Position numbers and translations under genes: made by a program. A stretch of DNA of 64,000 bases from Candidatus Binatia bacterium (GTDB lineage: Bacteria; Desulfobacterota; Binatia; Bin18): the NCBI GenBank assembly GCA_963666315.2, contig CAXXHG010000022.1, forward strand, positions 32,001-96,000, given 5' to 3'. This document shows, piece by piece, positions 10,024-58,094 of this stretch. The notes beneath the pieces were generated by a model that had not been told where the DNA came from, did no database searches, and saw only the letters and a list, made by a program, of their open reading frames with translations. How positions within the stretch are numbered: position 1 is the first letter of the stretch; each line of letters starts with the position of its first letter.

Positions 10024-10050
10024 GTAGGGGCGTATTGCTATACGCCCTTA
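10024..10050. repeat. GTAG-type REP-like palindrome / possible terminator between convergent genes
   Basis: gtaggggcgtattgctatacgccctta hairpin. Confidence 0.55.
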
Positions 10051-10053
10051 TCC

Positions 10054-10433: not shown

Positions 10434-11699
10434 TCAGTCGGCTATGAGGTCTTCCGCCACTTTGTGCGCGTGCCGAATCAGCAGCTCTTGATCCTGTACA
10501 GGATACTGGGTCAGGATGCCCGTCTCGATTCCCCGCTGCGTGTTCTCTAGGGTGCTGCCATCCTCCAGCCAAACATCCCGGGCTAAGCACTTGTTATATT
10601 CGCGGGTCACCAACTCTGCGGCGGTGGCTGGCTGCGGGAAGTAGCCGCGCGCGTTCCAGATTGAGCGATTCACCGTCACCGGCCACATGGTATGGGCGAC
10701 GTATAGAAAGGGACTCAGAATCACCATATGAAAGTTGGGAAAGATATAATAGATATCAAAGAACCACTGCTTGCTGCGCGTAGGATTCACCCCCAGCGGC
10801 CAGCGGTCCATATCTCTAAGACTGGGAAACGTTTTGAGGCTCGTCCCGAATTGGGCTACCAAGAGCTCCATGGGTGTCCGCTGTGTATTCCGGCGATCAC
10901 CGTAGAACGACATCATACTGTGACGCCGGAAGAGCTTTGTGTCGAGGACATGACAGGACGGCTGCTGCTTATTGACCATCACGCTGCCGGCGAAACGCTG
11001 GTGCAGCGATTTGCCGTGGTAGAATTCGAGTTGGGAATCGCGCAGAATCCTCCAGTTGCACGTCTGCTCGGCGGTATAGGACCAGCTCACCGGCAAGCGG
11101 TCAAAAGAATAACCGCGCAGCAGGTCTACCACTTCGCCTAAATACTGATGCAGCGTTTCAGGCGGATTTGGGTCCAGATTGATAAATATAAATCCTTCCC
11201 AGACATCAGTGGCGACCGGACTGAGGCCGTAGTCACGTTTGTCGAAGTCAAAGAACATGTCTTCTTCCGGCACCCCGACCAGCCGTCCGTCTGGCGCATA
11301 GGTCCAGCCATGGAATTTGCACGTCAATCCCGAACGACATGAGCCGTATCCGTCCCACGCCAGCCGATTGCCGCGATGTTTGCACACATTGTGAAATCCC
11401 CGCACCATGCCGTCCTTGCCACGGACGAGAAGTACCGAGGTTTTGGCGACCTCAACATTCTGCACCAGATAATCCCCCGCCTGCGAAATCTCCTCCACTC
11501 TTTTTCCGGTGCACAGCCAGGTGCGGTTAAAAATTTTCTCGCGCTCCTGCGTAAAATACTCTGGAGAGAGGTAGGGCGTGACGGGTAGGGGAGCGGTTCC
11601 CAGCTCCGGATAGTCCAGCGTCCATCTTTTGCCGTTCGTGCGAGTTTGCAGGGTATCTTGTACGCTGTCTTGCACAGTGTCTTGCACAGTGTCTTGCAT
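10434..11699 (-). CDS. Rieske aromatic ring-hydroxylating oxygenase alpha subunit
   Basis: HNVCKHRGN...CKFHGWTY Rieske motif; EFYHGKSLH and ED mononuclear-iron ligands. Confidence 0.93.
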   Translation of the reverse strand: MQDTVQDTVQDSVQDTLQTRTNGKRWTLDYPELGTAPLPVTPYLSPEYFTQEREKIFNRTWLCTGKRVEEISQAGDYLVQNVEVAKTSVLLVRGKDGMVRGFHNVCKHRGNRLAWDGYGSCRSGLTCKFHGWTYAPDGRLVGVPEEDMFFDFDKRDYGLSPVATDVWEGFIFINLDPNPPETLHQYLGEVVDLLRGYSFDRLPVSWSYTAEQTCNWRILRDSQLEFYHGKSLHQRFAGSVMVNKQQPSCHVLDTKLFRRHSMMSFYGDRRNTQRTPMELLVAQFGTSLKTFPSLRDMDRWPLGVNPTRSKQWFFDIYYIFPNFHMVILSPFLYVAHTMWPVTVNRSIWNARGYFPQPATAAELVTREYNKCLARDVWLEDGSTLENTQRGIETGILTQYPVQDQELLIRHAHKVAEDLIAD

Positions 11700-41069: not shown

Positions 41070-41878
41070 GGCATACCCTCCGGGAACAAGGACGCGCTCC
41101 GCTCCTGATGCGGGTAAGACTCAACACCGGGGAAGTCGTGGTGCGGTCCATTCGCAAAGATGACCTGCATACGGACTATGTGCCGGTCGGGCACTCCACG
41201 AACCTGGCCGCCCGGATGGAACAACTCGCTAATCCAGGGTCTATCTTGGTCACGGATTAAACTCATAAACTCACCGACGGTTACTTTGAATTCAAAGACC
41301 TGGGTCAGACGCAAATCAAAGGCGTCGAAGCGCCGCTCAACGTCTACGAAGTGCTGGGCGCAGGACGACTGCGCACCCGATTGCAGGTCTCTGCCCGCCG
41401 AGGTCTCACGCGCTTTGTGGGTCGTCACAGCGAGCTGGACCAGCTGCACCGGGCGTTAGAGCAGGCCAAAGACGGCCACGGCCAAATCGTCGGGGTACTG
41501 GGCGAGCCGGGGCTAGGGAAGTCACGACTCTTCTACGAGTTCAAACTCACCTCCCAAACTGGCTGTCGGGTGCTTGAAGCGTTTGCGGTCTCGCATGGGA
41601 AGGCGTCGCCGTATTTTCCGATTATCGAGTTGCTCAAGACCTACTTTCAGATTGAGCGCACCGATGATGAGCGGACACGGAAGGAGAAAGTCGCGGGGAA
41701 AGTCCTCATTCTGGAGCGCAGTCTCGAAGACACCCTGCCCTATCTGTTCGCTCTTCTCGGTATCGAAGATCCTGGCTCATCCCTGCAGCAAATGGACGCC
41801 CAGATACGGCGCCGCCGGAGGTTTGACGCGCTCAAAAAACTCTTCCTGCTCGAGAGTCTCAATCAACCGCTCCCCCTA
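41070..41878 (+). pseudogene. Internal AC-AAA fragment (end of cyclase domain plus Walker A), stop at 41258
   Basis: NTGEVVVRSIRKDDLHTDYVPVGHSTNLAARMEQ; GEPGLGKSRL. Confidence 0.88.
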
Positions 41879-41995
41879 ACGCCTGGGCGACATAGCCCTC
41901 ATCCGCGATAACTTGACACCGCGATCTTGACAACTCTACATTGAGCGACGGTAGTATCGATATTCGTTCTGAATTCCATTCGGAGATGAGGCACT

Positions 41996-43612
41996 ATGAC
42001 TAAACCGAAGACAGACGAAACATCGAGCTTCGATGCAATCGTGATCGGCGCTGGTATTTCTGGCATGTACTTTATCTATCGCCTACGCGAAATGGGAATG
42101 ACGGTACGTGTGTTTGAAGCGGGCAGTGGCGTCGGAGGCACGTGGTATTGGAACCGTTATCCAGGTGCACGCTTCGACTCAGAAAGTTATTCCTATGGCT
42201 ACTCCTTTTCCCAAGAGCTACTTGACGAATGGGAGTGGGGCGAACATTTCGCATCTCAGCCCGAAACGCTGCGGTATCTCAATTATGTCGCGGACAAGTT
42301 CGATTTGAGGCGTGATATACAATTCAATTCACGGGTTGCCGCGGCAACTTACGATTCATCCAACCGCAGCTGGCTCGTAGAAACCGAAAAAGGCGAATCC
42401 GCGTTCGCGCCGTTCCTACTACAAGCGGCGGGGTGCCTCTCCGCCCCTTACATTCCTGATTTTGACGGGGTTGATTCCTTTCGTGGTGAGACCTGGCATA
42501 CCTCGACGTGGCCGCATCATCCGGTAGATTTGAGTGATAAACGCGTCGGCGTGATCGGAACCGGGGCCACCGCGGTACAGATGATTACCGAGGTCGCAAA
42601 AAACGTCGGTGACCTTACCGTGTTCCAACGCACTCCGAACTACTGTAAGCCACTGCGCAACGGCCCCATTGCACCGGACGAACAGCGCGAGATAAAGGCA
42701 AGCTACGCGAAAATTTTTGAGCGGTGCAACAGCACCTTTGGTGGCTTTTTGCATGGTGCAGACGAGCGATGCACGTTCGACGTGAGCAACGAAGAGCGTC
42801 TAGCGTTCTACGAAAGACTGTGGAACGAAAAAGGGTTTGCCTTTTGGTTAGGCGGTTTCAGCGATATTTTGACCGACGAGAAGGCAAATGAAGCAGCCGC
42901 GCAATTCGTGCGAAATAAGATCCGGGACCGAGTTGATGATCCAGAGGTCGCTGAGCTATTGGTACCGACCGATCATGGCTTCGGCACCAAACGCCAGCCC
43001 ATGGAGAGTGGCTACTACGAAGCTTACAACCGCCCGAACGTTCACCTCGTCGATTTGAATACGTCTCCCATCGAAAGGTTTACCGAGGAGGGTATCAAAA
43101 CCAGCGACACCGAGTACCGGTTCGATGTCGTTATTTTCGCGACAGGATTTGATGCAGTAACTGGCGCACTCAATCGAATTAAGATTCGGGGTGAGGCCGG
43201 CGCGATGTTAAAGGACAAGTGGGATAACGGGCCGAGTGCTTTTCTCGGAATGAGCACGGTAGGGTTCCCGAATATGTTTATCACCGGGGGGCCTCATAAT
43301 TCCTCGAGCTTTTGCAATATTCCACGCTGTCTCGAACAAAACATCGAGTGGATCACCAATTGCATCGCCTATATGCGAGCACATGGCTACTCCCGGATCG
43401 AAGCAACTCAAGAGGCTGAGGACGCGTGGACTGAACATGTGCTCGAATCGGCCGATGAAACCCTGCTCACGAAAACGAACTCGTGGTTCATGGGGTCGAA
43501 TATCCCAGGAAAGAAACGCGTCTTCCTTAACTACGTGGGTGGGGTCCCAACATTTCGTGCAAAATGCGACGAGGTTGCGTCGAACGACTATGCCGGTTTT
43601 ATTCTCGAATAG
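41996..43612 (+). CDS. Baeyer-Villiger monooxygenase (cyclohexanone monooxygenase-like)
   Basis: GAGISG, GGTWYWNRYPG, FRGETWHTSTWP fingerprint, ATGF. Confidence 0.95.
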   Translation: MTKPKTDETSSFDAIVIGAGISGMYFIYRLREMGMTVRVFEAGSGVGGTWYWNRYPGARFDSESYSYGYSFSQELLDEWEWGEHFASQPETLRYLNYVADKFDLRRDIQFNSRVAAATYDSSNRSWLVETEKGESAFAPFLLQAAGCLSAPYIPDFDGVDSFRGETWHTSTWPHHPVDLSDKRVGVIGTGATAVQMITEVAKNVGDLTVFQRTPNYCKPLRNGPIAPDEQREIKASYAKIFERCNSTFGGFLHGADERCTFDVSNEERLAFYERLWNEKGFAFWLGGFSDILTDEKANEAAAQFVRNKIRDRVDDPEVAELLVPTDHGFGTKRQPMESGYYEAYNRPNVHLVDLNTSPIERFTEEGIKTSDTEYRFDVVIFATGFDAVTGALNRIKIRGEAGAMLKDKWDNGPSAFLGMSTVGFPNMFITGGPHNSSSFCNIPRCLEQNIEWITNCIAYMRAHGYSRIEATQEAEDAWTEHVLESADETLLTKTNSWFMGSNIPGKKRVFLNYVGGVPTFRAKCDEVASNDYAGFILE

Positions 43613-43671
43613 CCGCTCAGGTTCTACCAAGAAACCAGTTGAGCTACTTATTCCTATCCGCAGCGTAAAAA

Positions 43672-43756
43672 AGAAGGCACCGGGCTTCTTGTTTCTTCCC
43701 CTGCCCCTGCCACAGCCGGGCCAGGCTCGTGGCCGCGCGGAGTTCCCAGGATTTGG
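43672..43756 (-). pseudogene. AC-TPR 3' fragment
   Basis: KSWELRAATSLARLWQGQGKKQEAR. Confidence 0.85.
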
Positions 43757-43762
43757 ATACGT

Positions 43763-44818
43763 TCAGGCGGCTTCGAGGGTCGGCTGCACCTCGCTGCAAA
43801 ACAGGTCGAGTGTCGACTTGGCTTCATCCATCGTTATGTCGCCGGTCGGCGTCTGCAGTACGATGTGATCGACCATTCCATCGTCGATAATCTGACCGAA
43901 GCGGTCGACGATCTTGCTCGGCGAGCCGTGGCCTGCCTCGATCGCGGCATCGATGTGCGCCATGATCCGGCGGAGGGGGCCTAGCGCAGCCTCGGCACCT
44001 TCCGCTCCGAGGACCTCGGCATCCCAGCGATGGACCGCGTGCGCTCGGCGCATGAGGCCTTGCATGCCACGGGTTATAACATCGCGCGCGACCGCTTCGT
44101 CACGATCGATGGCGATCACCATCGTCGCACCGACCGTTGGCTGGTCGTTGGGGCCGTCGAGACGGATCGGGTCGTCCCGGTGAGCGTGCTAGGACTCGAC
44201 GTAGAGGTCGTAGGCGTCTTTGGGGATCGGCCCCGGGAACATCAGCTTGAGCCCGAATCGGCCGGCAGTCGCCGGCCTGCCAGGGTACCAGAACGGGATG
44301 TGCTCTTGCACCGGCCGCGTGGCCATCGGCATTGTCCGGAAGTCGTAGTACTTCGACTCCTCCGAGCTGATCTCGCCGGTCCTTAAGGCGCGAGCGATAA
44401 TACCGAGGACATCCTCGAATCGATCGGTCGCCGTCGGCCAGTCGCTCCCGAGCCAGTAGTGCTCGATGGGCGCAACGCCGCGCCCGACGCCGAACGCGAG
44501 GCGCCCCGCGGTCAAGTTGTCAAGCACACACAAATCTTCGATGAGCTGCACCGGATGATGGAGCGGGAGCAGCTTGACCATGGGTCCCATGCGGATCGTT
44601 GTGGTGATCTGCGACGCGGCCGCGATGACCAGATCCTGATTGGGTGCCATGCAGAGATCGGTGCCGTGATGCTCGGCGAGATAGAAGCCGGTGAACCCTG
44701 CTTGGTCAGCCATCCGTACCAAGTCTAGCCGGTCGCGAAACAGCTGCTGCGTGCTCGTGCCGGGGATGCCCTCGATGTGGTCAAAAATGCCGAATGTTGG
44801 GGTGTTCACGGTAGTCAC
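43763..44818 (-). pseudogene. LLM oxidoreductase with in-frame TAG (44189-44191)
   Basis: YLAEHH, GRLAFGVGRG; reading frame continues past the stop to LFCSEVQPTL. Confidence 0.85.
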
Positions 44819-45393: not shown

Positions 45394-46578
45394 ATGGCAC
45401 AAAACGGAACATGGAAGCGGATAGAGCCGCAGCTTTATCGCTTAAAACACCAAACCCCAACTGGCGAATGGACCACCCGCTACTACGCGCGCTTTAAGGA
45501 TTGGAAAGGCGTGAATCGGAAGGTTCCGGCCGGCACTGATCTGCGCGGCGCGAGAACAAAGAAAAAGCTGCTGCTTGGCGAAAATGCGCGCCACGTGGAT
45601 TTCGATACGTAGAAAACCCGCGCCACCACGTTAGCGCAATGGGCTGAGGTCTACCTGGACCGGTATGCTAAGGATAAACGTTCCATTTTAGAAGATCGCC
45701 GCCACGTCCGCGTGCTCATCGAGTTCTTTGGCAATGCGCTCTTATCGCAAATCACAGCGGGGAAGATTAACGACTTCAAGCAAGTCCGGAAAGACCGACT
45801 GACCTAGCGCGGTGATCCCGTCAGTGTCTCATACTGTAACCGGGAACTCGCCTGTCTACGCCACCTCCTGAAACTCGCAGAGGAGAAAGACCTGATCGAC
45901 AAAGCTCCTATGGTTCGTTTGCATCAAGGGGAGAACAGCCGAGATATTGCACTCTCGACTGAGGAGTACCAGCGGATTCTAACGCTTGCTCCGGCGCACC
46001 TTCAACGGATAATGCTCTGCGCCTATGAGACAGGGATGCGCTCTCGGGAAATCGCGGACTTGACCTGGGACAAAGTGGACATGGAGGCTGGCGTTATTCG
46101 TTTAGGAACGGTAGACACCAAGACGAAACACAAGCGTATCATCCCCATCCCCCTACCCTGCGGACTGTGCTTACGGAGATCCGGGCGAGCCAACGCCAGG
46201 GCAAGGTGGCCCCGATCAGCGGACATGTCTTTACCTGGAAGGGAAAAGCGTTCAGCAGGCAGGGCTGGAAGCGGTCGTGGAAAACGGCATGTACCAAAGG
46301 CGGATTAGTAGGACGTACATTTCCATGACCTGCGCCATACCTTTGTGACCCGAAAAGTGCGGGAGGGCTGGGACTACAAGCGGATCATGGCAATAACGGG
46401 CCATAAGACATTCTCTGTTTTCCAACGCTACAACAACCCGTCAGAGGATGACATTAAAGAAGTCGTGTCGGCATCCCGCCCAAAAAGAACGTCGGCAGAG
46501 CACGTTCGTTGGCAAACTGTTGGCAAACGACCTATGAGTCCTTCCACACCCATCCGGCCTATTGCGCTAAGTCTCTGA
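45394..46578 (+). pseudogene. Tyrosine recombinase/integrase of island A (stops at 45610 and 45805; frameshifts ~46150 and ~46305)
   Basis: NRELACLRH, ETGMR, FHDLRH, TGHKT, QRY. Confidence 0.92.
46509..46530. repeat. Putative arm-type site, island A right
   Basis: Identical to 386-407. Confidence 0.8.
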
Positions 46579-46598
46579 ATCAAAAGGGAAAAGAAAAG

Positions 46599-46673
46599 TG
46601 CGCCCTGGAAGATTCGAACTTCCGACCTACAGATTCGTAGTCTGCCGCTCTATCCAGACTGAGCTAAGGGCGC
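46599..46673 (-). tRNA. tRNA-Arg(ACG)
   Basis: gcgcccttagctcagtctggatagagcggcagactACGaatctgtaggtcggaagttcgaatcttccagggcgca folds as a full cloverleaf; CCA not encoded. Confidence 0.96.
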
Positions 46674-46870: not shown

Positions 46871-49663
46871 TTAGCTTACTTTCCGCCTCGGAGGAGGGCC
46901 TTCAACAACTTCGCGCAGATCATCCTCACTCGGGTTGTTGTATCGCTGAAAAACAGAGAACGTCTTATGGCCCGTGATCGCCATGATCCGCTTGTAGTCC
47001 CAGCCCTCCCGCACTTTTCGGGTCACAAAGGTATGGCGCAGGTCATGGAAATGTACGTCCTCTAACTTTGCCTTTCGGCACGCGGTATTGAACGCCCGCT
47101 TCCAGCCTTCGGTCATGCGTTTTCCGCCCCAGGTGAAGACCTGGCCCCCGATCGGCGCGACCTTGCCTTCCCGCTGCTCTGTGCGAATCCCCTCCAGCAC
47201 TTCCCGGCAGACGGCAGAGATCGGTATCGCCCGCTTATAACTTGTCTTCGTGTCCTCTGTCGCCAGACGAATAAAGCCCGAGGCAAAGTCGACCTTGTCC
47301 CAGGTCAGCTCTTTGATCTCGCCGGACCGCATGCCGGTCTCATAGGTGCAGACGAGAATCCGCCGCAGATGTGCAGGCGCGCACGCAAGTAGGCTCTCGT
47401 ACTCGTCTTCAGACAATGTTCTCTCCCGGGCGTTATCTTCCTGATGGAGTTTCACGATGGGCGCCGAGTCCAAAATACCCTCTTCCGCCGCCAGGCGCAG
47501 GAGATGCCGCAGACAGGCGAGTTCACGATTGCAGTACGCCGCACTTACCGGGTGCCCACGCACTGTCTGACGGGATTTCCTGAGCTGTTTGAATTCCTCC
47601 ACGCGTGATCGGGTAACGCTGGAGAGCAGCACCGGACCGAAGAAGTCGCCGACGCGGTTCTCACTACTTGCAGCGATAACCGCGTCACCCGGGTAATACA
47701 GCACCGACTCTGCCATCAGCGTCATGTCCGTAACCGTCACGGTACCATCTCTGTTCATATCTTTCTGGAGTGGCCAGTCGCGTTGGCCGGTCAGCACCCC
47801 CCACCGGCTCTCCGCTTCTTCGTCGCCCCGGTCCGCAGCTTTGCGATACCATTCTGCCGCTTGCTGTCGATCACGCGGGACGCCGCGTCCGTATTCAGAC
47901 AGCAGTCCGAGGTTATAGTGCGCTTCCACGTTTTCGTGGTACGCGGCCTTGGAAAACCACTGCCTTGCGAGCTGATAATCCTGCGGCACCCCCTGACCAT
48001 GCAAATACATAGTGGCTAAGGAGACCTGTGCATTGACTTGGCCTTGCTCGCCCGCCTTGCGGTACCACGCCGCTGCATCACGGTAGTTCTCGACGACGCC
48101 GTAGCCCGCATAATACGCATCCCCCAGATCCCACTGTGCGTCTGCATGCCCTTGGTCGGCGGCTTTACGGTACCATTTGATTGCTTCGGGATAGTCTTGC
48201 GGGACGCCGTAGGCCTGGAAGTACATCGTGCCGAGTATATATTGCGCTTGTGCGTGTCCTTGGTCTGCCGCTTTGCGGTACCAGTGCACCGCTTCAAGAT
48301 CGTCCGTCTCCGCGATGAGGCCGAGAGAGTACACTTCCCCCAACAAAAACTGGGCCGTTGCCAGACCCTGGTCCGCCGCCTTACGATACCATTTTGCCGC
48401 CGCCACAAAATCTTCCGGCACCCCGAGACCCTCAGAGTATATCCGGCCTAATGAGAACTGCGCCTTGGCATGTCCTTGACCTGCAGCTTTGGCATACCAC
48501 TTGTGTGCTTCTTGAGCACTCTGCGTCACACCGTACCCCCGCCAGTACAGGTAGCCTAGGCTGTACTGCGCTGCAGCATCCCCTCGATCCGCGGCCTTCC
48601 GTGTCCACTTGGCTGCTTCTTCATAATCCTGTGCTACGCCGTGGCCCTCAGCGTAGATTTGGCCCAGAACATATTGGGCCTCGGCGTCGTCCTGGTCTGC
48701 GGCCCTGTGGTACCATTTCTGCGCTTCGGCATGATCCTGCACGACTCGGTAGCCGCTGTGGTACATATCACCCAAGCTGCGTTGCGCCACGACGTAGCCC
48801 TGCTCTGCCGCTTTGCGGTGCCACTGCAGTGACTCTTCGGCGTTCGGCTCGACACCCTGCCCGTCGGCATACATTGCGGCCAATGTGAGCTGCGCTTGGC
48901 CACTCCCTTGATCTGCCGCTTTGCGGTACCACTTCCGCGCTTCCGCGTAATCCTGCTCGACGCCGTGGCCCGCCATGTACAGATTCCCCAGGTTGTATTG
49001 CGCCGTCGCGTTCCCCTGGTCAGCGGCTTTGCGGTACCACCTCTCCGCCGTTTGATAATTCTGCTCGAGGCCTTGGCCGTGGTCGTACAGATAACCCAAG
49101 GCGAGCTGCGCCGTAGCATCGCCTTGGGCGGCGGCTTTACGGTACCACAGCGCGGCTTCCTGGCAATCCTGCGTCACGCCCCGGCCTTTGTCGTAGAGAA
49201 CGCCCAGGTAACTCTGCGCTTCCTTTTCGCCTTGGTCGGCGGCCTTGCGATACCACTTTGCGGCGGTAGGAAAGTCCTGCGGCACGCCGTAACCCAGTTG
49301 GTATAAGTGACCTAGATTGGTCTGCGCCAAGTCCATGCCCTGGGCCGCAGATTTACGGTACCACTTGAGTGCTTCCTGAAAGTCTTGCTCGACGCCTCGG
49401 CCTTCGGCGTGCATGAATCCGACCCAGAACTCCGCATCGGCCTCTCCCTGGTCCGCGGCCTTGCGCCACCAGTGCAGAGCTGCCGCATCGTCTTGCGGAC
49501 CTCTGGTGCCGGCGTAGTGGACATACCCCATCATGACCTGCGCGGAGGCCTCACCCTTGGTGGCCCTCTCCTGAAGGTCTGCGAAACGGTCAGCCAGCGT
49601 CAGAACGGGGCTGAGCAACAATCCACACGTCAGAGACAGTATTCCTGTCTGCCGAATGTTCAT
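46871..49663 (-). CDS. Fusion ORF: signal peptide + 16 Sel1-like repeats + DxNxDG loop + tyrosine recombinase core/catalytic domain
   Basis: 16 WYRKAAxQG-type repeats; ETGMR, TKT, HDLRH, GH and RY intact in the same frame; junction at FFG ~47640. Confidence 0.85.
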   Translation of the reverse strand: MNIRQTGILSLTCGLLLSPVLTLADRFADLQERATKGEASAQVMMGYVHYAGTRGPQDDAAALHWWRKAADQGEADAEFWVGFMHAEGRGVEQDFQEALKWYRKSAAQGMDLAQTNLGHLYQLGYGVPQDFPTAAKWYRKAADQGEKEAQSYLGVLYDKGRGVTQDCQEAALWYRKAAAQGDATAQLALGYLYDHGQGLEQNYQTAERWYRKAADQGNATAQYNLGNLYMAGHGVEQDYAEARKWYRKAADQGSGQAQLTLAAMYADGQGVEPNAEESLQWHRKAAEQGYVVAQRSLGDMYHSGYRVVQDHAEAQKWYHRAADQDDAEAQYVLGQIYAEGHGVAQDYEEAAKWTRKAADRGDAAAQYSLGYLYWRGYGVTQSAQEAHKWYAKAAGQGHAKAQFSLGRIYSEGLGVPEDFVAAAKWYRKAADQGLATAQFLLGEVYSLGLIAETDDLEAVHWYRKAADQGHAQAQYILGTMYFQAYGVPQDYPEAIKWYRKAADQGHADAQWDLGDAYYAGYGVVENYRDAAAWYRKAGEQGQVNAQVSLATMYLHGQGVPQDYQLARQWFSKAAYHENVEAHYNLGLLSEYGRGVPRDRQQAAEWYRKAADRGDEEAESRWGVLTGQRDWPLQKDMNRDGTVTVTDMTLMAESVLYYPGDAVIAASSENRVGDFFGPVLLSSVTRSRVEEFKQLRKSRQTVRGHPVSAAYCNRELACLRHLLRLAAEEGILDSAPIVKLHQEDNARERTLSEDEYESLLACAPAHLRRILVCTYETGMRSGEIKELTWDKVDFASGFIRLATEDTKTSYKRAIPISAVCREVLEGIRTEQREGKVAPIGGQVFTWGGKRMTEGWKRAFNTACRKAKLEDVHFHDLRHTFVTRKVREGWDYKRIMAITGHKTFSVFQRYNNPSEDDLREVVEGPPPRRKVS

Positions 49664-49706
49664 CAGGTTGGCCCGTCTTCCGGAGGCTGCGTATGCTCTG
49701 TGAGAC

Positions 49707-51437
49707 TCAGAGTGGCGCCTCCAACAAAGTTTTGAAAAAACCCTTTGCCGCCTGAATTTCTTTGAGCAGGTCTTGCCGATTATCCAGTAACGTCTCCTTT
49801 GGAATCGCATCAAAATTCGGCATTTCCAACTTCTTAGCCAGATGCTCCATATTATCCTCGGTCAGAACGGTTTCCATATCTTCTAGTCTGGCCAGCCACG
49901 TTGCGGCAATTGTTCTGGATTGGGCGCTTTGCGCAATGCCCGGGCGGTCCTTGAGGCTCACATAGATCGGGGCGGAATGCACAAGACTCGTGGGTTTGAA
50001 GGAACTCCAATATAAAGGAGTCGCCATCGTATTTTCTTTGGGCTTCTCTCCGTAGCCGCGCACGGCGAACCAGGACGCTTCATTCACCAGATGACGAGCG
50101 CTGAATTCGATTCTGTCTGCACCCTTAACCCGGGAAAAGCGCTTGATCACATTACCGTTGTGCACAATTTCAACAATCGACAGATCATCCCTCTCAGGAT
50201 CAAACACCACACGGCCTGTGAGCTGCACCGAAGTGGCCTGCTCAAGTACGATGTCACTGCCTATCTCTTGGCCATTGACCTGAAACTCGACCAGCGGACC
50301 TGTTGTGACAAAGGTGCGGCCTTTGCGCACTCCTTCCAGCCAATTCGCGTAGGTTAATGGACCCTCGACTTTGGTATAAAAGCGCTCATGACCAGGGATG
50401 GTTTGTCCGCCACACGGATAGTCCGTCCCCGCTGTGGGAGTCACTCGGAAACCCAGCCCGAGAACATCGTACCAGGTCTCATAATCACTCCGATTAAATT
50501 GCAACACCTCCACAAAATGCAGCAGATTATGGGGCAGGACCACCGCCATACCATCGTGAGGAGCAACAACAGAACCGTTTGGAAGATAGGCATGGGCAAA
50601 TCCATTGATTGCCCCTTGCTTTACTGTTTCCTGCCACAGCAAACGATAAATGAGATATTTCTCAGGGCTGTGGTGAGCGGTGTCTGCGCCCAGCGTAATC
50701 GTGTGCCCCAGAAAGTGGCTGCGAGGATTTTCCTGGCCGGCTGCCAAGATGTAATCGCCCTCCTGATAATGGCTGTCCGGGCCATGGGCATGCTGCAGGG
50801 CAATGGTGAAATTCTTGACCTTGCCCATTTGCAGCAGGTTGGCCACATGAATGTCTTCGGCCTGCATCATTTTGGAGATATACGGATTCAGCTCTGGGTC
50901 AGGTCTTGGGATATGCAAATGATCATCCGAACTATACCAGCCGTTTTGCGGCAGGTTGCTCCAGCGGGTGAGTTCTATAGTGTGCTGGACCGTTTCTGCG
51001 GCTTTGATCTCTACCGTACCACTACCCACTCTGTATTCGGGACCTTTGAACACTGTGATAGTAGCCGCACCGGTTGGCAGCGGAATCGATGACTTTCCAT
51101 TGCTATAGAACTGGGTAGACTGCGTATACGGATTGTCGAGTCTGTCAGAAAAACCCGCCAGTGTGGACGCCAGGTCCACATACCCCGCGCCTTGATCACT
51201 CATGTCACAATCGCCACCAACCAGCAGCGCGTCCTCGGCAACATGATGCGTCCCATCTGCAGCGTGAATTTCCACTCGTGCAGGGATAGACTCCCCGGTG
51301 ACAGCGTCCGTGATCTTCAGCTGTAAGGTCCCCGTTGGCTCAGTGGCGAAGAGAGGAGTTGAGAACGCACCCAGTACGCACAAGAGCAATGCCACGATTG
51401 AAGGCGTCCGATATGGGAACCATTTCGCTGCGTACAT
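49707..51437 (-). CDS. Secreted CehA/McbA-family (PHP-like) metallohydrolase
   Basis: Signal peptide, GWYSSDDHLH, FAH, AGTD, GRTFVTTGP. Confidence 0.8.
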   Translation of the reverse strand: MYAAKWFPYRTPSIVALLLCVLGAFSTPLFATEPTGTLQLKITDAVTGESIPARVEIHAADGTHHVAEDALLVGGDCDMSDQGAGYVDLASTLAGFSDRLDNPYTQSTQFYSNGKSSIPLPTGAATITVFKGPEYRVGSGTVEIKAAETVQHTIELTRWSNLPQNGWYSSDDHLHIPRPDPELNPYISKMMQAEDIHVANLLQMGKVKNFTIALQHAHGPDSHYQEGDYILAAGQENPRSHFLGHTITLGADTAHHSPEKYLIYRLLWQETVKQGAINGFAHAYLPNGSVVAPHDGMAVVLPHNLLHFVEVLQFNRSDYETWYDVLGLGFRVTPTAGTDYPCGGQTIPGHERFYTKVEGPLTYANWLEGVRKGRTFVTTGPLVEFQVNGQEIGSDIVLEQATSVQLTGRVVFDPERDDLSIVEIVHNGNVIKRFSRVKGADRIEFSARHLVNEASWFAVRGYGEKPKENTMATPLYWSSFKPTSLVHSAPIYVSLKDRPGIAQSAQSRTIAATWLARLEDMETVLTEDNMEHLAKKLEMPNFDAIPKETLLDNRQDLLKEIQAAKGFFKTLLEAPL

Positions 51438-51700
51438 GATCTCCCCCCTTTTGACCGTACTGTGTATCAACTGTCCGCGTAACACGCCAGCAGAAACGTT
51501 GGTTCGTACGTGTCTCTGACTTTATCTAGTTGATCACGCAGGCGCGTGGATGGCGGCGTACCGGACGAAGGACAACTCAACGGAGAGAAGAAAGCGAAGT
51601 TAAATACGGCCACGTACGCTGCCTTTTGATAAACCAACAGCCACCAGCCGATTTAGGACAGAAATGGCCCGAAGGAGGAACTCCCTAAGCCACTGGACTC

Positions 51701-51762
51701 TAAGGAGAAAAGGAGTGGAGCCAATGAGAATTGAACTCACGACCACTTGAATGCCATTCAAG
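51701..51762 (-). repeat. 3' fragment of tRNA-Ala(GGC) plus tail (relic att site)
   Basis: 57/59 identical to 817-875 in inverted orientation; complete anticodon arm cttga-atGGCat-tcaag; no D arm or 5' strand. Confidence 0.8.
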
Positions 51763-51970
51763 TGGCGGCTGCGACACCTGCCTACTCCTGCCTAACAAAC
51801 CCAGTCATTTTAGCGCCCGCCTCGTTTTTTGTTATGCAGTGATTGGTTTACGTAGGCTGCAGTACACTGACAAAAGGCGGACAATGACCGTCTCAGTCGG
51901 ATTGAAGTGAATACGCCTGTACATTGGGCTACGATAATTCCTTTGCCAAAGCTATGCACCGTTGTATACA

Positions 51971-53011
51971 CTATTGGCGGAAATGCGGCATAACCTCTTT
52001 GGCAAACAGTTCCATTGAACGGCGTACCTTTTGCGGATCGAGTCCGGCCATCTGCATCCACATGACCAGGTGGGTCACGCGCGTTTCCTGGCGGTAGCGT
52101 TCGATCTCTTGGATCGCCGCGTCGGGTGTCCCAATGATGAGCGGCGCTTGGAAGAAGGAGAGATCTCGGACATGGCGCATCTCACCAGGCGGGGGGACAC
52201 TCGGTCTGGACATGACCGAAGCACTCCAAGGCAAGTCGTCGGCCTCTTTAAAGCGTCGGTCGTACGAACTCATCATATAGTGCAGATGCGGCTCCACGTC
52301 GTCCCACGCTTTGTCTCGGGTCTCCGCAACATAGACCGCTCGCAGCTGCGCAATATGATAGTCGTCTGGACGCCGACCATGCTGCTGCAATCCAGCGTCA
52401 TACATCCGCTGTAAGTCCGCACCACCACTCCCTCCCAAGTGATAGCCAAGGCGCGCCACTCGGGCCACCGATTTTTCGGCCATCGCCGCAATCCAAATCG
52501 GTGGGTACGGTTTCTGGACCGGCTTCGGAGCTAGCACGACTTCGCGCAGATTGTAGTGCGTGCCGGCAAAGGAGAAGCTGTCTTCCGTAAAACAGCGCCG
52601 GATAATCTCAGTGCCTTCTTCAAGGCGAGAGGCCCGTTCGCGCCGCGGAATGCCAAAACTGGCAAATTCGCTCAGCCAATACCCCTGCCCGATGCCGAGG
52701 TCGAGCCGACCGTCCGAGATGATGTCAACGGTCGCCGCATCTTCTGCCACGCGGACCGGGTTATGCAAAGGCAGGATGATGATATAGGTCCCCAGTCGAA
52801 TGCGACTCGTTTGCATAGCGATAGCGGACAAGATCGGGAAGAGGGACGGCGCCCAAGCATCGTCAGCAAAATGATGCTCAGTCGTCCAGATATGATCGTA
52901 GCCCAACTCCTCCGCCAGGACGGCTTGCTCGATATGGTCCTGGTAGAGCTGCGGAAAAGGCACCGCCCATTGTTTTGGATTCCGAAACGGTAAAAGCAAG
53001 CCAAAATCCAT
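51971..53011 (-). CDS. LLM-class flavin-dependent oxidoreductase
   Basis: IWTTEHHF, PVRVAED, GRLDLGIGQGY; similar to 14775-15788. Confidence 0.92.
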   Translation of the reverse strand: MDFGLLLPFRNPKQWAVPFPQLYQDHIEQAVLAEELGYDHIWTTEHHFADDAWAPSLFPILSAIAMQTSRIRLGTYIIILPLHNPVRVAEDAATVDIISDGRLDLGIGQGYWLSEFASFGIPRRERASRLEEGTEIIRRCFTEDSFSFAGTHYNLREVVLAPKPVQKPYPPIWIAAMAEKSVARVARLGYHLGGSGGADLQRMYDAGLQQHGRRPDDYHIAQLRAVYVAETRDKAWDDVEPHLHYMMSSYDRRFKEADDLPWSASVMSRPSVPPPGEMRHVRDLSFFQAPLIIGTPDAAIQEIERYRQETRVTHLVMWMQMAGLDPQKVRRSMELFAKEVMPHFRQ

Positions 53012-53110
53012 CACGCCCCCTTGTCCCGTCGGCATTCTCACTATCGGAGTCTTGACAACCGGTGTGTACCCAGAGTCAGGCAGCGGTGCTCCGAGGTGAC
53101 AATTGTCTCT

Positions 53111-53286
53111 TCAGCTTAACTGCTCCAATACCGTTTTTGTCTCTTGCAAGTCCGCCGTGTCAAACCCTTCCGTGAACCAATTATAGACCGGCGCGAGAAG
53201 ATCGTGGGCTTCGGTTGTCTTCCCTTGCCCCTGCCACAGCCGGGCCAGGCTCGTGGCGGCGCGCAGTTCCCAGGATTTGGCTTCTG
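53111..53286 (-). pseudogene. AC-TPR 3' end (displaced copy)
   Basis: AKSWELRAATSLARLWQGQGKTTEAHDLLAPVYNWFTEGFDTADLQETKTVLEQLS*. Confidence 0.9.
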
Positions 53287-53297
53287 CAAAGACCGCG

Positions 53298-53738
53298 CTA
53301 CACCCACTCTTCCTCAGTATGGAGGCGGGTCAAGTGGATCTTCTTAAGCTTCCACTGGCCGTCTTCCTTCACATAGTCTTCCTGGTAGTGTCCCCAGCCC
53401 TTAAAGTGGCACGTCGGTAGGCGCACATCGTCGAACATCGACCAGACCCCACGTGCAGTAGTTGCGCTAGTCAGCTCGATTTCCGGCATATACCCCTGAT
53501 GGATCGATTTGGCGCCGGTCATCAGACTCCGGATCCCGTCCACCAGCGCGTCGCGCCCCGTGATCTCGATGTCACGCGGCAGATCCTTGCTCGCCCGTGG
53601 CGCACCCTCGTATAGCGCCGAAACATCAGCAGTAAAACATTCCGGGAAGAGGTCCCACTGCTGCGTGTCCATCAATCGGAAATAGCGCGCTTTGAGTTGC
53701 CGGATGGCTTCCACATCGTTGAGTTGGTCGCCGGTCAT
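53298..53738 (-). CDS. SnoaL/NTF2-like (BaiE/LinA-type) protein
   Basis: EAIRQLKARYFRLMD, PEIEL, GHYQEDYVKEDGQWK. Confidence 0.88.
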   Translation of the reverse strand: MTGDQLNDVEAIRQLKARYFRLMDTQQWDLFPECFTADVSALYEGAPRASKDLPRDIEITGRDALVDGIRSLMTGAKSIHQGYMPEIELTSATTARGVWSMFDDVRLPTCHFKGWGHYQEDYVKEDGQWKLKKIHLTRLHTEEEWV

Positions 53739-53833
53739 GTCTTGCTCCCTTCGGCTGCGTGTTCTTTGGTCTTCCGGCACAGAATACGTAACCACTCCGC
53801 ACCCAACAAGTTATGATATTTTCTGTCCTTGAG

Positions 53834-54265
53834 TCACTCCACCTCCCCATTCTCCATCCAACCCGCATAACTCGGGATCCCCGCCGGTTGATGCACCCAG
53901 CCATGCCGGCGTCTGCCGTAGACGGCCACATTCGGAGCGGGGAATCGGAGGTCTGTAAGGCAGCCCACGGCGACCACGATCTGACCACTCAGGGTAGGCA
54001 AACCTGGGATCACCCAATAGACCGTGGTCCCACAGGTCGGGCAGAAGTGAAACTCAATAACGAACCCTGCCTCGCCCGTGCGCTGATACACGTGTGTTTC
54101 ACCGTCGATCGTGACCTTCGGGCGCTCAAACAGAGCCGCGAGACTATACGTCGTGCCCGTGCGTCGCTGACATAGTTCGCAATGACACATCACCACCTGC
54201 GTAGGGTCTCCTTCACAGCGCACCTGAAGCTGCCCGCAATGACACGCAGCCGTTTGTTGTTTCAT
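53834..54265 (-). CDS. GFA (glutathione-dependent formaldehyde-activating) family protein
   Basis: CHCG, CHCELCQR, FCPTCGT. Confidence 0.9.
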   Translation of the reverse strand: MKQQTAACHCGQLQVRCEGDPTQVVMCHCELCQRRTGTTYSLAALFERPKVTIDGETHVYQRTGEAGFVIEFHFCPTCGTTVYWVIPGLPTLSGQIVVAVGCLTDLRFPAPNVAVYGRRRHGWVHQPAGIPSYAGWMENGEVE

Positions 54266-54339
54266 TCCGTCCTCCTCGTAATCGCTCTAGCGAGAAAGGC
54301 GTATGCTCAGCATCTCCCCGCTGCAAGGATCAACGAGTC

Positions 54340-54729
54340 TTATGCCTCGGCGAGATGGAACCACGGCAGACGTTCCTCTGGAAAATACTGTCTCCTGCTC
54401 GGCTGCAGCCGCGCGGCGTGATCGAACGCCCCGACAGGGAAATGCGTTTCCGTCGGCCCAGGGAGACTTTCGCAAGTCAAAGTGGACCCGCACCGGGGGC
54501 AAAATCCGCGCCGTGTTCTGCCTGGCGTAGAATCGAACTTGGTGATCTCGCCTTTGGTCACGGTATACGCCTCGCAGTCGAATGCCACGAAGACAGAAAC
54601 CGGCGCGCCACTATGCCTGCGACAACTTTGGCAATGACACCAATATACCCCCTTCGGTTCACCCGTTGCGATAAAACGGACCGCCCCGCACAGGCAGCCC
54701 CCTTCAAACTGCTCGGTCGTGCCGCTCAT
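54340..54729 (-). CDS. GFA family protein
   Basis: GGCLCG, CHCQSCR, FCPRCGS. Confidence 0.9.
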   Translation of the reverse strand: MSGTTEQFEGGCLCGAVRFIATGEPKGVYWCHCQSCRRHSGAPVSVFVAFDCEAYTVTKGEITKFDSTPGRTRRGFCPRCGSTLTCESLPGPTETHFPVGAFDHAARLQPSRRQYFPEERLPWFHLAEA

Positions 54730-54908
54730 GATCTGATCCTCCTACCTCGCCTTGGAATCAGTTAGTACGTCGGAAAAAGGCCGTGCCTTCTCCGGCCCCT
54801 AACCGCGCTAATCTATCTTACATATGGGCCTGCCGATAGCAAATAGACAAAGATGAGCGGTAAGCGTTTCTTGGGAGCCCCTGAGCTGGCCTTGGAGCCA
54901 GCAATCAG

Positions 54909-55271
54909 TCATGAGAGTTGGTCGAGCAGCGCCTTCGCGTCTTTCAAATCCGCCGTATCAAAGCCTTCCGTGAACCAATTATAGACCGGCGCGAGAAGAT
55001 CGTGGGCTTCGGTTGTCTTCCCTTGCCCCTGCCACAGCCGGGCCAGGCTCGTGGCGGCGCGCAGTTCCCAGGATTTGGCACTCTGGTGGCGAGCAACTTC
55101 AAGAGCGGTGTGAAAAGCGGCTTCTGATTCCGCATGATTGGCTTGCGACTGCTGGAGCAACAGCTCGCCCTTGAGGCGGTATAGCTCGACTTCGTAGTAA
55201 TGCTCCTCCGTTTCGTGCACTATATCTAGCCCTTCTGTTACTGCCTGCAGCCCTTCCTCACTCCTCCCGAC
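54909..55271 (-). pseudogene. AC-AAA-TPR gene, C-terminal TPR part, cut by IS6
   Basis: ELYRLKGELLL...AKSWELRAATSLARLW...FDTADLKDAKALLDQLS*. Confidence 0.9.
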
Positions 55272-56110
55272 GGTACTGTCAGCTTAACGAGGGGTTTGCC
55301 AACTATTGGTGTCTTATGCCGTGACAAGGGCATGAGTTCCTGTAGTACAAGTCTGTATAGAAGGCACCGGTTTCCGCCCGAAATCACCGCCCACGCGGTC
55401 TGGCTGTATCACCGTTTTAGCCTCAGTTTTCGTGAAGTCGAAGAACTCTTAGCCGAGCGCGGTGTCACCGTGAGCTATGAAGCCGTGCGTCAATGGTGTC
55501 TCAAGTTTGGCCACGCGTTCGCCCAGAAGCTCCGACACCAGCGAGGACGCCCGGGCGATACGTGGTATCTGGACGAGGTATTTATCCGCATCAGGGGCGA
55601 GCGCTACCACCTGTGGCGCGCTGTAGATCAAGATGGCCAGACGCTCGATATTCTCGTGCAGAAACGGCGCAATACCGGAGCGGCCAAGCGCTTCTTTCGG
55701 AAGTTATTGAAGGGTTTACGCTATGTGCCCAACCGCCTCATCACCGATAAACTTCGTAGTTATGGGTCAGCCCACCGAGATATTATGCCGTCGGTGACTC
55801 ACTGCACCACGCAGTACGCCAACAACCAGGCCGAAGTCTCTCATCAACCGACTCGGCAACGCGAACGCCACATGCCCGCTTCAAGTCTCTACGACACGTC
55901 CAACGCTTCCTCTCTGTCCATGGACCGATCAACAACCTCTTTCGAGTCGGTCGCCACCTCATGAAGGCAGTCCACTGTCGGTTGTTCCGAGACAAGGCAT
56001 TTGCAACCTGGCGGGACGTGACCACGGGGCTGGAAGTGGCGTAAGGATGCCCCTCATCTTACCTCACACTACGTGATTTTCGCACTCTGCCCCGATAACT
56101 TGACAGTACG
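55272..56110 (+). mobile_element. IS6-family element; transposase 55332-56044 frameshifted ~55875
   Basis: IRs ggtactgtcagctta / taacttgacagtac; WYLDE, WRAVDQDG, ITDK; no target-site duplication. Confidence 0.92.
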
Positions 56111-56828
56111 AGTGATAAGTATCGGTGCTAATGACCAGGGTGTCTGGTGCTGCTTGGCCTTGCACGCGGGCCGCAATATTCGGTGTCTCTCCCAGGGCCA
56201 ATTGTTCAGTATGTTCGCCACCACCCACTGCGCCAATGACCACGGGGCCGGTGTGCAGACCAATGCGGGCTTGGATCGGCTGAGCCAGCTCAAGTCTCGG
56301 TAAGGCCGCCAGGATGTCCAGCCCGGCTCTGACTCCCCGAATCGCATCGTCTTCATGCGCCGCTGGGTAGCCGAAGTACACCAGGATGCCATCCCCCAGG
56401 TATTGGGCGATATCACCCTCGTAGCGTTCAATGACTTGCCGACACGCGTCTTGATACGTGCCGACTATGGCGTGTAAGTCTTCCGGGTCGAGTTGTTCGG
56501 AGAGTGTCGTTGAGCCCACCACGTCGCAGAACATGACCGTCAGTTGGCGGCGTTCGCCTGCGGAAGTCTCAGGCAGAGCACAAGGTGGTGTTGGGGCCGT
56601 TGTCTCAGCCGGCGGACTTACGCCGTCACCGGAGATGGTATCATCATTCCAGACCAAGACTTTGCCATCTTCATCAACGGCTACGCGCTCGCCTATGATC
56701 AACTCGTCCTTAAGGGTATCCAGCGACTCCTCGTCAAGCTTGAATTACCGCTTCAGGGTCCGGTACGTGACCCGACCCTTGCTCCGCAGCACTGCCTTCG
56801 CTTGCTCGATCACCTCAAGAAAATCCAT
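56111..56828 (-). pseudogene. AC gene 5' part (stop at 56745), cut by IS6
   Basis: MDFLEVIEQAKAVLRSKGRV..., GERRQLTVMFCDVVGST, GDGILVYFGYP, GETPNIAAR. Confidence 0.9.
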
Positions 56829-57004
56829 GTGCCCCGCCTGTCGCGGGGATTATAGGCAACATCGAGGCTGATGAACAGAGTTGCGCTACTCGCTCAAGTT
56901 GCGACCACACTGCCGACTAAGGCTACGCTGTCGCGCACATCAGAATGAGCAGTGAAAAGTGCGCCGCATGCGTCGCAACCGTCACACAAAACACGGGTGA
57001 TTCT
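56829..57004 (-). promoter_or_regulatory. Conserved island leader with TATAAT (56849-56854)
   Basis: Homologous to 481-659. Confidence 0.75.
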
Positions 57005-57070
57005 TATCACGATGTTAAGATGTGGCGTCACCGTGGGACCAAGGGGAGCGGCAAGAAGGAAGGCGTTGTT

Positions 57071-57091
57071 GAGTAGAAACAGAGTAGAAAT
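57071..57091. repeat. Putative arm-type site, island B right
   Basis: Identical to 46722-46742. Confidence 0.8.
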
Positions 57092-57227
57092 ATTTGGTGC
57101 GAAACCAGGTCAAACGAGAGAGATGGGGAACAATAGGAAACGTGGGAGATCACACAGGTATACCAGCGAAGACGCAGGGTCACCGCTAACTAGCTGCTTT
57201 CGATTGAGTTTTACCTTGGGGGCCTTT

Positions 57228-57275
57228 GCGGGTTCGAAGCCCGTTGCTCTATCCAGACTGAGCTAAGGGCGCGTA
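57228..57275 (-). repeat. att site: 5' half of tRNA-Arg with a UCG anticodon arm, no T arm
   Basis: gcgcccttagctcagtctggatagagc-a-acggg-ctTCGaa-cccgc followed by unrelated sequence. Confidence 0.85.
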
Positions 57276-57500
57276 GATGAGAAAAGCGAACGCTGCAAGC
57301 GAGAGGGCTGACCAAAAAGGGTCCGCTAGGGCTTTCGTTATACCACACGCCGCCGGGAGATCGCAACTCGACCCTTTTGTTACCATTTTTTTTTGACAGT
57401 TCTTATTGTGAAACTTCTGTATACGCACCCTGCTTCAGTTACTATACCGGCAAGAGGGAACTTGCCGTCCTAACTACCGTTCTTCCTCTAGGAGGCTGTT

Positions 57501-58094
57501 ATGTGTGGGGGATGTGTTCGTCTTTGTGCTGTATTGATTGGTCTTCTTATTCTCGTTTTACCGCAGCGACTCTTGGCCACAACCGTCCTTTCCCAAAGCT
57601 TTCCGGACCTGGTGCATAAGGCCGAGGTTATTGCCGTCGGAACCGTAACAGGCATCAATAATCACTGGGATGCCGCGCACCGGGCACCATTTACTGTTGT
57701 TACCTTCTCGAACTTGAACGTACTGAAAGGCACGACCGAGGGAGACACCCTCAGCTTGTATTTCCTTGGCGGTATCACCCCAAAGGGACATACGATCTCC
57801 GTTCATGGCGTTCCACGCTTTTCAATAGGTGAGAAAAACATTGTCTTTTGTGTAGGCAATCAGCGCAATTTCAGTCCATTAGTCGGCGTGTGGCAAGGCC
57901 GACTGCGCGTTGCTTTTGATACGCAGCGTCAGGTCGAAACGGTTCAGGACAACTTCAATGCCCCGATTCTGGGCGTTCAGAATGGACAGTTTTTGAAAAA
58001 GACTCCGGGCAGCCAGGCTCGGCAACAACAATCGGTTTCTCTGTCTTCTTTCTTGCAGTTGATCCAAAATGAGCTGGGGAAGGACAATGACTAA
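57501..58094 (+). CDS. Secreted hypothetical protein
   Basis: Signal peptide, RBS ggagg, overlaps the next start codon. Confidence 0.75.
   Translation: MCGGCVRLCAVLIGLLILVLPQRLLATTVLSQSFPDLVHKAEVIAVGTVTGINNHWDAAHRAPFTVVTFSNLNVLKGTTEGDTLSLYFLGGITPKGHTISVHGVPRFSIGEKNIVFCVGNQRNFSPLVGVWQGRLRVAFDTQRQVETVQDNFNAPILGVQNGQFLKKTPGSQARQQQSVSLSSFLQLIQNELGKDND

Follow-up and report, generated by a model that had tools for sequence, protein, structure and literature searches.

This study concerns a pair of direct repeats in a 64,000-nucleotide stretch of DNA from a Candidatus Binatia bacterium (contig CAXXHG010000022.1; the whole stretch is hereafter called the window). The two copies, A and B, are 3' ends of genes of the AC family, whose members are signalling proteins of ~1130 residues combining a class III cyclase, an AAA ATPase and a TPR region. 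An initial annotation had described the pair from a reading of the sequence alone, and the follow-up reported here is a computational analysis of the same 64-kb window. Copy A is a stub lying behind a SnoaL-like gene, and the junction between the two is inherited. The AC gene ending in copy B is a dead pseudogene, and stub A is itself a mosaic, with a core identical to that of B and a differing tail. The repeat looks like ordinary recombination debris rather than a newly arrived mobile cassette. The reading that we favour, with a probability of about 0.55, is that of an inherited AC stub, derived from an ancestral insertion of SnoaL-bearing DNA, whose core would have been recently overwritten from copy B by homologous recombination.

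The repeat pair and the AC gene ending in copy B

The features on which the argument relies are the following (positions are those of the window):

53111-53281, minus strand: copy A, or stub A, a 5'-truncated AC 3' end comprising codons ~1075-1131 and the stop codon
54909-55079, minus strand: copy B, inside the 3' part of an AC-family pseudogene
54964-55079, minus strand: perfect 116-bp core as found in copy B by base-by-base comparison
54909-55272, minus strand: 3' part of the AC pseudogene, codons ~1008-1131, the TPR end, closing in copy B with the tail DLKDAKALLDQLS
55273-56109, plus strand: IS6-family insertion sequence of 837 bp, with a transposase open reading frame at 55296-55964
56110-56828, minus strand: 5' part of the AC pseudogene, codons 1 to ~242, with the N-terminal region, the class III cyclase domain and an in-frame stop at codon 28
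43644-43758, minus strand: stub C, a third AC 3' fragment, codons ~1074-1111, 91% identical to A and B over 75 nt and then diverging

The repeat search retrieved copies A and B as a single direct-repeat family (53121-53281 / 54919-55079) of 161 nt, with 91% identity and a spacing of 1798. Compared base by base, 53166-53281 equals 54964-55079 over 116 bp without mismatch, and 53151-53281 matches its partner at 129 of 131 positions, the mismatches occurring solely at 53165 and 53159 and being both synonymous (Gly GGG/GGC and Asp GAC/GAT). Between the shared GCC codon and the stop, 151 of 171 positions match, with 99/99 over the first 99 nt and 15/30 over the last 30 nt. The encoded tail is ...DLQETKTVLEQLS in copy A and ...DLKDAKALLDQLS in copy B. 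For a 59-nt piece of the core, 0 chance matches are expected (100 shuffles). The geometry given by the initial annotation, that is a 131-bp repeat with copies 1798 bp apart, two synonymous differences, a perfect 116-bp core, tails diverging after the repeat and three co-oriented genes between the copies with no recombinase among them, was thus reproduced base by base and, for the three genes, by their Pfam domains. This description left out the IS6 element upstream of B, the pseudogene state of the AC gene and a third, shorter copy at 43698-43756, located within stub C and differing from the core by 3 mismatches in 59 nt.

Stub A begins 16 nt after the SnoaL stop codon, has no start codon and maps to residues 1076-1130 (82%, tblastn) of P0121, a full-length AC-family protein of 1131 residues taken as reference for the mapping. 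The [G + C] content remains at 0.54-0.61 throughout 52.8-55.4 kb, with no foreign trough. That the stub lies 1.3 kb downstream of an AC gene end, and in the same orientation, is easier to account for by homology than by chance. From the three C-terminal AC pieces present in 64 kb, it can be roughly estimated that a second co-oriented piece would fall within 2 kb downstream by chance in ~3% of cases, which is suggestive, though no demonstration, of a homology-driven or in-situ origin.

The AC gene ending in copy B is dead because of the stop at codon 28 and of the ~765 codons missing at the IS6 element, which stands in their place, 194 bp upstream of copy B. Residues 1-242 of P0121 correspond to 56828-56118 (62% identity) and residues 1008-1130 to 55283-54915 (81%; tblastn). 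The cyclase domain (PF00211, Pfam Guanylate_cyc 4.4e-19) is recognized in the 5' part and Pfam TPR_12 in the 3' part; the gene thus keeps the cyclase domain and the TPR end of the family, its AAA_16 part being deleted, while in stubs A and C the match is limited to the terminal block. The insertion sequence is bounded by terminal inverted repeats (55273-55292 / 56090-56109, 80% complementary) and its transposase scores 196 bits in NCBIfam for a cut-off of 125, with a Pfam DDE_Tnp_IS240 match; no target duplication is found around 55273-56109, the flanking 8-mers being different. The AC family is very large, with 7999 of 8000 scored candidates at E <= 0.001 and top matches 71-81% identical, and it is amplified in relatives: one contig of 7.09 Mb accounts for 11 of the 120 best N-terminal matches, and 4 truncated C-terminal forms from this contig occur among the family matches.

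The two parts of stub A differ in character. In the middle of the core, which is variable, A and B agree at 51/51 positions, versus 35/51 for either of them with the stub of a related genome (locus L008, presented below); stub C also diverges in this region. On comparison of these sequences, the core of stub A looks freshly copied from B. For the tails, 239 family proteins were gathered, 163 of them having the terminal motif. Counted after 'DL', all of the latter (163/163) have A as third residue and 162/163 have L as sixth, where tail A has T and V, respectively; tail B and L008 conform at both positions. Tail A looks as if it had long been free of selection, as in a long-dead stub, and its departure from (near-)invariant sites makes a recent displacement from a working gene unlikely. 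Tail B has the look of a native end of functional type. Over its last 22 residues, B is identical to P0242, the closest full-length homologue by its N-terminus (77%), and the three cores nearest to the core type of A and B all carry DLKDAK tails (P0128, exact; P0213, 34/35; P0141, 33/35). The difference between the tails of A and B is as large as that between paralogues.

The SnoaL-to-stub junction in related genomes

Relatives were found by a genome search with SnoaL and 80 loci were fetched. The 14 closest ones (L001-L014) have 85-90% protein identity; 13 are labelled Binatia or Binatota and one, L012, Thermodesulfobacteriota. The DNA shared by the window and these 14 loci is restricted to 53265-53787 (84-87%, blastn), extended to 53222 in L002 and to 53132 in L008, and the alignments always start at 53785-53787, except in L009 (53748). 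AC-like sequence follows the SnoaL stop at equal offset in all of them, to the following extent:

L008, after the SnoaL stop: complete stub, still in frame, matching A at 136/171 and showing T>M and L>P within the AATSLARLW block
L002, after the SnoaL stop: ~60 nt of AC-like sequence with a stop codon
L003, after the SnoaL stop: ~14 nt of AC-like sequence
11 loci of type I, after the SnoaL stop: at most 17 nt of AC-like sequence, 15/17 to the core in most and a trace only in L012

Because AC-like sequence is found at the same nucleotide in all 14 loci, and in differing contexts, the junction is older than these lineages. Upstream of SnoaL, L002, L003 and L008 have an amidohydrolase gene, and the type I loci an IlvD-like gene that lies on the opposite strand. 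Past the AC relic, the type I loci continue with other DNA, a thiolase 5' fragment in 8 of the 11. In L008 the junction is placed behind an amidohydrolase and a Baeyer-Villiger monooxygenase (BVMO) gene, and the 3.3 kb available contain no AC gene. A scan of the 80 loci for the AC motif matched only at this place behind the SnoaL stop, in 10 loci, and the motif is absent from the 12 outgroup SnoaL loci inspected. In the tree, the SnoaL of the window groups with those of L008, L002 and L003 (support 89/83), inside a clade of 15 sequences (100/99).

A decayed, co-oriented AC N-terminal relic (codons 7-39) is located 2.9-4 kb upstream of SnoaL in 4 of the 11 type I loci, so that SnoaL lies between AC remains there too, which agrees with a position of SnoaL within what is left of an AC gene. 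The genes found on the B side of SnoaL in the window do not accompany it: a GFA homologue adjoins SnoaL in 0/80 fetched loci, with only weak matches in L002, 8.4 kb downstream, and GFA-GFA-SnoaL is therefore not a recurrent unit. Searched against a plasmid collection, the whole 1969-bp feature gave 3 records, in which the AC core alone was matched (75-77%).

In type I relatives, the 5' end of a thiolase gene is present as a direct repeat in L007 (7582-7771 / 10473-10662, 190 nt, 98%) and in L004 (7091-7236 / 9971-10116, 146 nt, 90%), each time bracketing a 2.9-kb segment that runs from the IlvD-like gene, on the other strand, to SnoaL and the 17-nt AC relic. This bracket is of the same kind as that formed by A and B in the window, with a different gene. 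Isolated AC fragments are found at or near synteny breakpoints (L001 11982-12095, L003 14760-14864, L004 6991-7089, L007 7481-7579, L011 6194-6304 and L012 6938-7039); they include a cyclase piece, a C-terminal tail from ~codon 1096 and N-terminal codons 7-39 with stops. An IS6-type terminal repeat is located just downstream of the thiolase start after SnoaL in L013 (~10560-10620); IS6 is active around this gene in relatives too, and IS6 pieces also occur in L005 and L007.

Origin of the repeat and competing explanations

According to the favoured reading, an ancestral insertion would have brought SnoaL-bearing DNA inside an AC gene or to its end and left the stub, most likely by C-terminal displacement, or in a Campbell-like manner, at the 3' core that the family conserves. 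The stub would have been joined to SnoaL before the divergence of the related Binatia-type lineages and have remained so, with a later, lineage-by-lineage turnover of the genes upstream of SnoaL. Copy B would be the genuine 3' end of an AC paralogue located nearby, now itself a pseudogene. The near-identity over 116-131 bp is most likely a recent homologous-recombination tract, produced by gene conversion from B to the stub 1.8 kb off; its limits would be the 5' end of the homology on one side and, on the other, 3' tails too different to pair, and the product would be a fresh B-type core followed by an old drifted tail. Today the two repeats would have no role in cyclase signalling, and the 1798-bp segment would be prone to RecA-dependent loop-out. 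The repeat itself, the death of the AC gene, the inheritance of the junction and the mosaic are observations; the conversion, its direction and the ancestral insertion are inferred.

Several points weigh against this reading. The conversion is deduced from two sequences only, with no donor/recipient polymorphism seen, and on its 5' side the tract has little homology available (~28 nt). At positions 116-140, A equals L008 at 4 of 5 informative sites, and at positions 141-171 B equals L008 at 8 sites and A at 4, so that the tails have no clear orthology. The reading frame is still open in the stubs of both the window and L008, and the type II SnoaL loci have no AC relic in the 10 kb upstream. 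The 5' limit of stub C falls within 3-6 nt of that of stub A, behind a different gene; this shared limit is left unexplained by conversion or common descent and hints at a preferred breakpoint or site. Finally, the recent homologous re-integration of a circle whose core was already identical gives an indistinguishable product.

Such a circle was the proposal of the initial annotation, in which a recent integration had also swapped the AC tail. A recombinase-less circle carrying the core, tail B, the two GFA genes and SnoaL would have entered the AC 3' core recently through one crossover, giving a new tail to the AC gene and leaving the old end A beside a luciferase-like monooxygenase (LLM) gene. 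We regard this scenario as unlikely. The geometry, which is that of a Campbell-type insertion at a gene 3' end, stands, as does the orientation; the perfect core suits RecA, and the finding of the SnoaL-to-core junction in other genomes is expected of a circle-borne junction. Moreover, Rhs loci, which have identical cores and differing tips within a locus, are proposed to evolve by homologous recombination at their conserved core with circular intermediates (Jackson et al. 2009, BMC Genomics 10:584, PMC2935791). What is not supported is the recent arrival. The junction is old, GFA is linked to SnoaL in none of the 80 loci, so that the cassette expected elsewhere as a unit was not retrieved, and the three plasmid records match the AC core alone. 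The junction of L008 is found behind amidohydrolase and BVMO genes, with no AC gene in the available 3.3 kb. The tail swap is not supported by tail B, which is typical of the family, of its core type and of its nearest homologue P0242 over the last 22 residues; tail A is the aberrant one, and its deviations at (near-)invariant positions make a recent exit from a working gene unlikely. A single crossover alone does not make cores identical, and prior identity is needed. The region has no foreign [G + C] trough (0.54-0.61 over 52.8-55.4 kb). Such an integration leaves a restored gene end; the 3' end of the AC gene is indeed intact, but the nonsense codon and the IS6-associated loss of ~765 codons leave a dead gene, for which a restored end is without present value.

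Campbell integration by a tyrosine integrase at the 3' end of a tRNA or protein gene leaves direct repeats bracketing the insert, one of which completes the gene while the other is a displaced fragment. The locus is similar in that direct repeats of the AC 3' end bracket an insert (161 nt, 116-bp core, spacing 1798). Unlike in such elements, the target gene is not kept intact (stop at codon 28, ~765 codons lost), there is no recombinase in or beside the insert, the IS6 transposase being outside the bracket and the IS6 ends not being the repeats, and the insert is not found as a unit elsewhere (0/80 SnoaL loci; AC core only on plasmids). It also departs from integrase islands by its size of only 1.8 kb and by its differing tails with no clean att core, the integrases of the window being located at tRNA-Arg.

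The layout may also be compared, by analogy, with the 'C-terminal displacement' of Rhs loci, which it resembles. In the published description, a full Rhs gene is followed by a 5'-truncated fragment repeating its core; cores are identical within a locus and C-terminal tips differ, and the fragments have no start codons and are decaying (PMC2935791). Similarly, stub A repeats the conserved AC core downstream, without a start and directly behind the SnoaL stop, and the cores of A and B are identical (99/99 nt) with differing tips (15/30). Unlike Rhs, the AC locus encodes a class III cyclase/AAA ATPase/TPR signalling protein and not a polymorphic toxin; its tips are ~12-residue variants of one motif, with no toxin domain; no functional link with the tip is evident for the GFA, GFA and SnoaL cargo, which includes no cognate gene; no [G + C] trough marks the locus (0.54-0.61); and it holds a single stub, which is linked to a cargo gene across species, instead of an array. 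In the model of type VI secretion system (T6SS) effector-immunity displacement through illegitimate recombination that homology facilitates, a conserved anchor lies upstream, the other join is illegitimate, and older 3' pieces are moved downstream, where they persist as remnants (Kirchberger et al. 2017, PMC5361080). A homologous anchor and 3' remnants downstream are the likeness claimed for the AC locus; it differs from these T6SS modules in having no effector or immunity genes, no demonstrated combination of an anchor with an illegitimate join, and an ancient junction, the identity being best explained by a later conversion. The literature searched gave no account of AC-family stubs like these and no paper on the subject in Binatota, supplements of papers not being covered.

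A broader role of the AC 3' core can be imagined, and seems to us unlikely. The conserved core of this heavily amplified family would act in Binatia-type genomes as a dispersed, recombinase-free landing pad, accessory catabolic genes such as that of SnoaL carrying a core stub as a portable homology anchor and moving between paralogues and genomes by excision and re-integration; C-terminal displacement would thereby operate beyond polymorphic toxins. The bracket formed by B and A would then be a still-active excisable unit of 1.8 kb, and the 5' limit shared by A and C a preferred joining point.

IS6/IS26-type rearrangements include adjacent deletions and translocatable units. IS6 has indeed deleted most of the AC gene, and IS6 end remnants adjoin two other truncated AC paralogues; unlike in an IS6/IS26 unit, the bracketing repeats are gene sequence, and no insertion sequence is present at the SnoaL-to-stub or GFA-to-SnoaL junctions. 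An IS6 translocatable unit was rejected, since the repeats are not insertion sequence and the only full IS6 (55273-56109) lies outside the bracket.

A site-specific cassette system, with a recombinase site near AC codon 1074 and elements carrying codons 1074 to the end as attachment site, would account for displaced stubs sharing their 5' nucleotide, and we hold it to be quite improbable. The starts of the SnoaL/A and broken LLM/C junctions do lie no more than 3-6 nt apart, an imperfect inverted repeat of 9-10 bp with a 6-nt spacer can be seen by eye in the core, and two tyrosine integrase genes are present in the window. However, there is no recombinase in the insert, both integrases flank tRNA-Arg and its repeats and so belong to tRNA islands, a further stub in L003 starts elsewhere (~codon 1096), the folding of single strands does not surpass that of shuffles (z = -0.11, 0.07, -0.59) and just two independent junctions are available. 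Integron gene cassettes are small promoter-poor units beside a recombination site, the older ones being pushed downstream. The small, promoter-poor gene units next to a recombination site recall them; unlike in an integron, there is no IntI or adjacent integrase and no attC-like fold, and the repeat is coding sequence of a paralogous family. An attC-like or other structured site was discarded, both strands of stub A and stub C folding like shuffles.

An assembly artefact would require that the 116-bp repeat was traversed twice, the true state being the AC end followed by LLM, with the 1.8-kb segment on a separate molecule or strain variant. An exact repeat of 116 bp can confuse short-read graphs, and both resolutions use the same edges, but the independent assembly of L008 shows the same SnoaL-to-stub join and nothing else in the window looks collapsed, which makes an artefact very improbable. 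Lastly, that no recombination took place and strong constraint on the AC C-terminus, very conserved as it is (7999/8000 scored candidates at E <= 0.001, top matches 71-81%), kept A and B identical is hardly credible, since stub A is untranslatable, having no start and lying behind a stop, and since the middle of the core is variable (35/51 to L008, divergent in stub C) and yet identical at 51/51 positions between A and B, which rules out constraint alone as the cause of the identity.

Neighbouring genes, other AC debris and significance

The genes between and beside the copies, and the other AC fragments of the window, are the following:

54340-54729, minus strand: GFA-fold gene 1, 129 residues (Pfam GFA 1.4e-24; no NCBIfam match)
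53834-54265, minus strand: GFA-fold gene 2, 143 residues (Pfam GFA 2e-25)
53265-53787, minus strand: SnoaL_4 / NTF2-like gene module, coding 53298-53735 (Pfam SnoaL_4 5.1e-26)
51971-53041, minus strand: F420/FMN-type LLM gene, downstream of stub A (Pfam Bac_luciferase 9e-67)
2124-3072: AC fragment, residues 5-300, cut by an IS6 end remnant at 3089
3603-3797: AC fragment, residues 1-65
41084-41872: AC fragment, residues 180-447, adjoining an IS6-end-like 24-mer at 41895-41918

The SnoaL module takes in a 52-nt 5' leader and a 3' flank running into stub A. The two GFA genes share 30% identity over 82 residues (BLASTP), and gene 2 was rejected as a bona fide S-(hydroxymethyl)glutathione synthase (TIGR02820, 25.6 bits for a cut-off of 234.55); the GFA proteins thus stay well under the NCBIfam threshold of a genuine formaldehyde-activating enzyme. 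The LLM gene at 51971-53041 narrowly exceeds the cut-off of TIGR03619 (167.4 versus 166.9 bits). Between A and B, the only Pfam domains are GFA, GFA and SnoaL_4, with no recombinase domain. Copy B and GFA gene 1 are separated by a spacer of ~180 nt. Over 52900-55300, the promoter scan returned 0 promoter-like sites, and 3 terminator-like sites were found versus 1.8 expected, none of them between B and GFA gene 1; a weak hairpin with a T-run at ~54797-54774, noticed by eye, was not called by the terminator scan. The sole Rfam match on 51000-58000 is a borderline tRNA-like element (51716-51778, minus strand; 29.4 bits for a cut-off of 29), for which ARAGORN named no anticodon; its neighbours are the LLM gene on one side and, on the other, a gene for a metallohydrolase of CehA/McbA type (49707-51485).

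No intact AC gene is present in the 64-kb window according to tblastn with P0121, which retrieved pieces only. Stub C starts 6 nt past the stop of a broken LLM gene (44818-43763), at CCAAATCC. This LLM gene (43763-44818, minus strand) is split into two open reading frames, and stub C is convergent with a Baeyer-Villiger-type monooxygenase gene (41996-43612). Decayed IS6 end remnants (3089-3286 and 41895-41918) adjoin the truncation points of the AC fragments 2124-3072 and 41084-41872, so that all three N-terminal AC fragments of the window end at IS6 sequence.

The tRNA-Arg gene (46598-46673, minus strand) has its 3' half repeated at 193-242 (94%) and its 5' half at 57233-57275 (88%), and is faced from both sides by related tyrosine integrase genes, one of them fragmented (45394-46578 and 46871-47600), which form a 171-nt inverted repeat of 87%. 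This looks like two integrative islands at one tRNA-Arg, the A/B locus being inside the right-hand one. Inverted repeats of 82-84% relate 477-641, 817-939 and 3596-3727 to 56844-57008, 51637-51759 and 56704-56835, respectively, and the left end of the window contains a second, decayed copy of the first 42 AC codons with their upstream region, and of the pseudo-tRNA region. A 980-codon open frame (46871-49813, minus strand) combines 16 Sel1 repeats (108-nt periodicity, 13-14 copies) with a phage-integrase domain and is probably two genes read through. A direct repeat of ~330 nt in four adjoining blocks (85-94%) links 5052-5276 and 8159-8382, ~3.1 kb apart.

The locus illustrates how the fragments of a multi-copy signalling-gene family come to be strewn over a genome, the closely spaced ones being kept identical by recombination. 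For interpretation, repeats that bracket a segment are not in themselves a sign of recent insertion. For annotation, AC stubs can be mis-called as small TPR proteins, and for the assembly of metagenome-assembled genomes, exact repeats of 116 bp are present inside mosaics. If the landing-pad hypothesis were true, C-terminal displacement, known until now from Rhs and other toxin loci, would also shuffle metabolic genes in an uncultured phylum.

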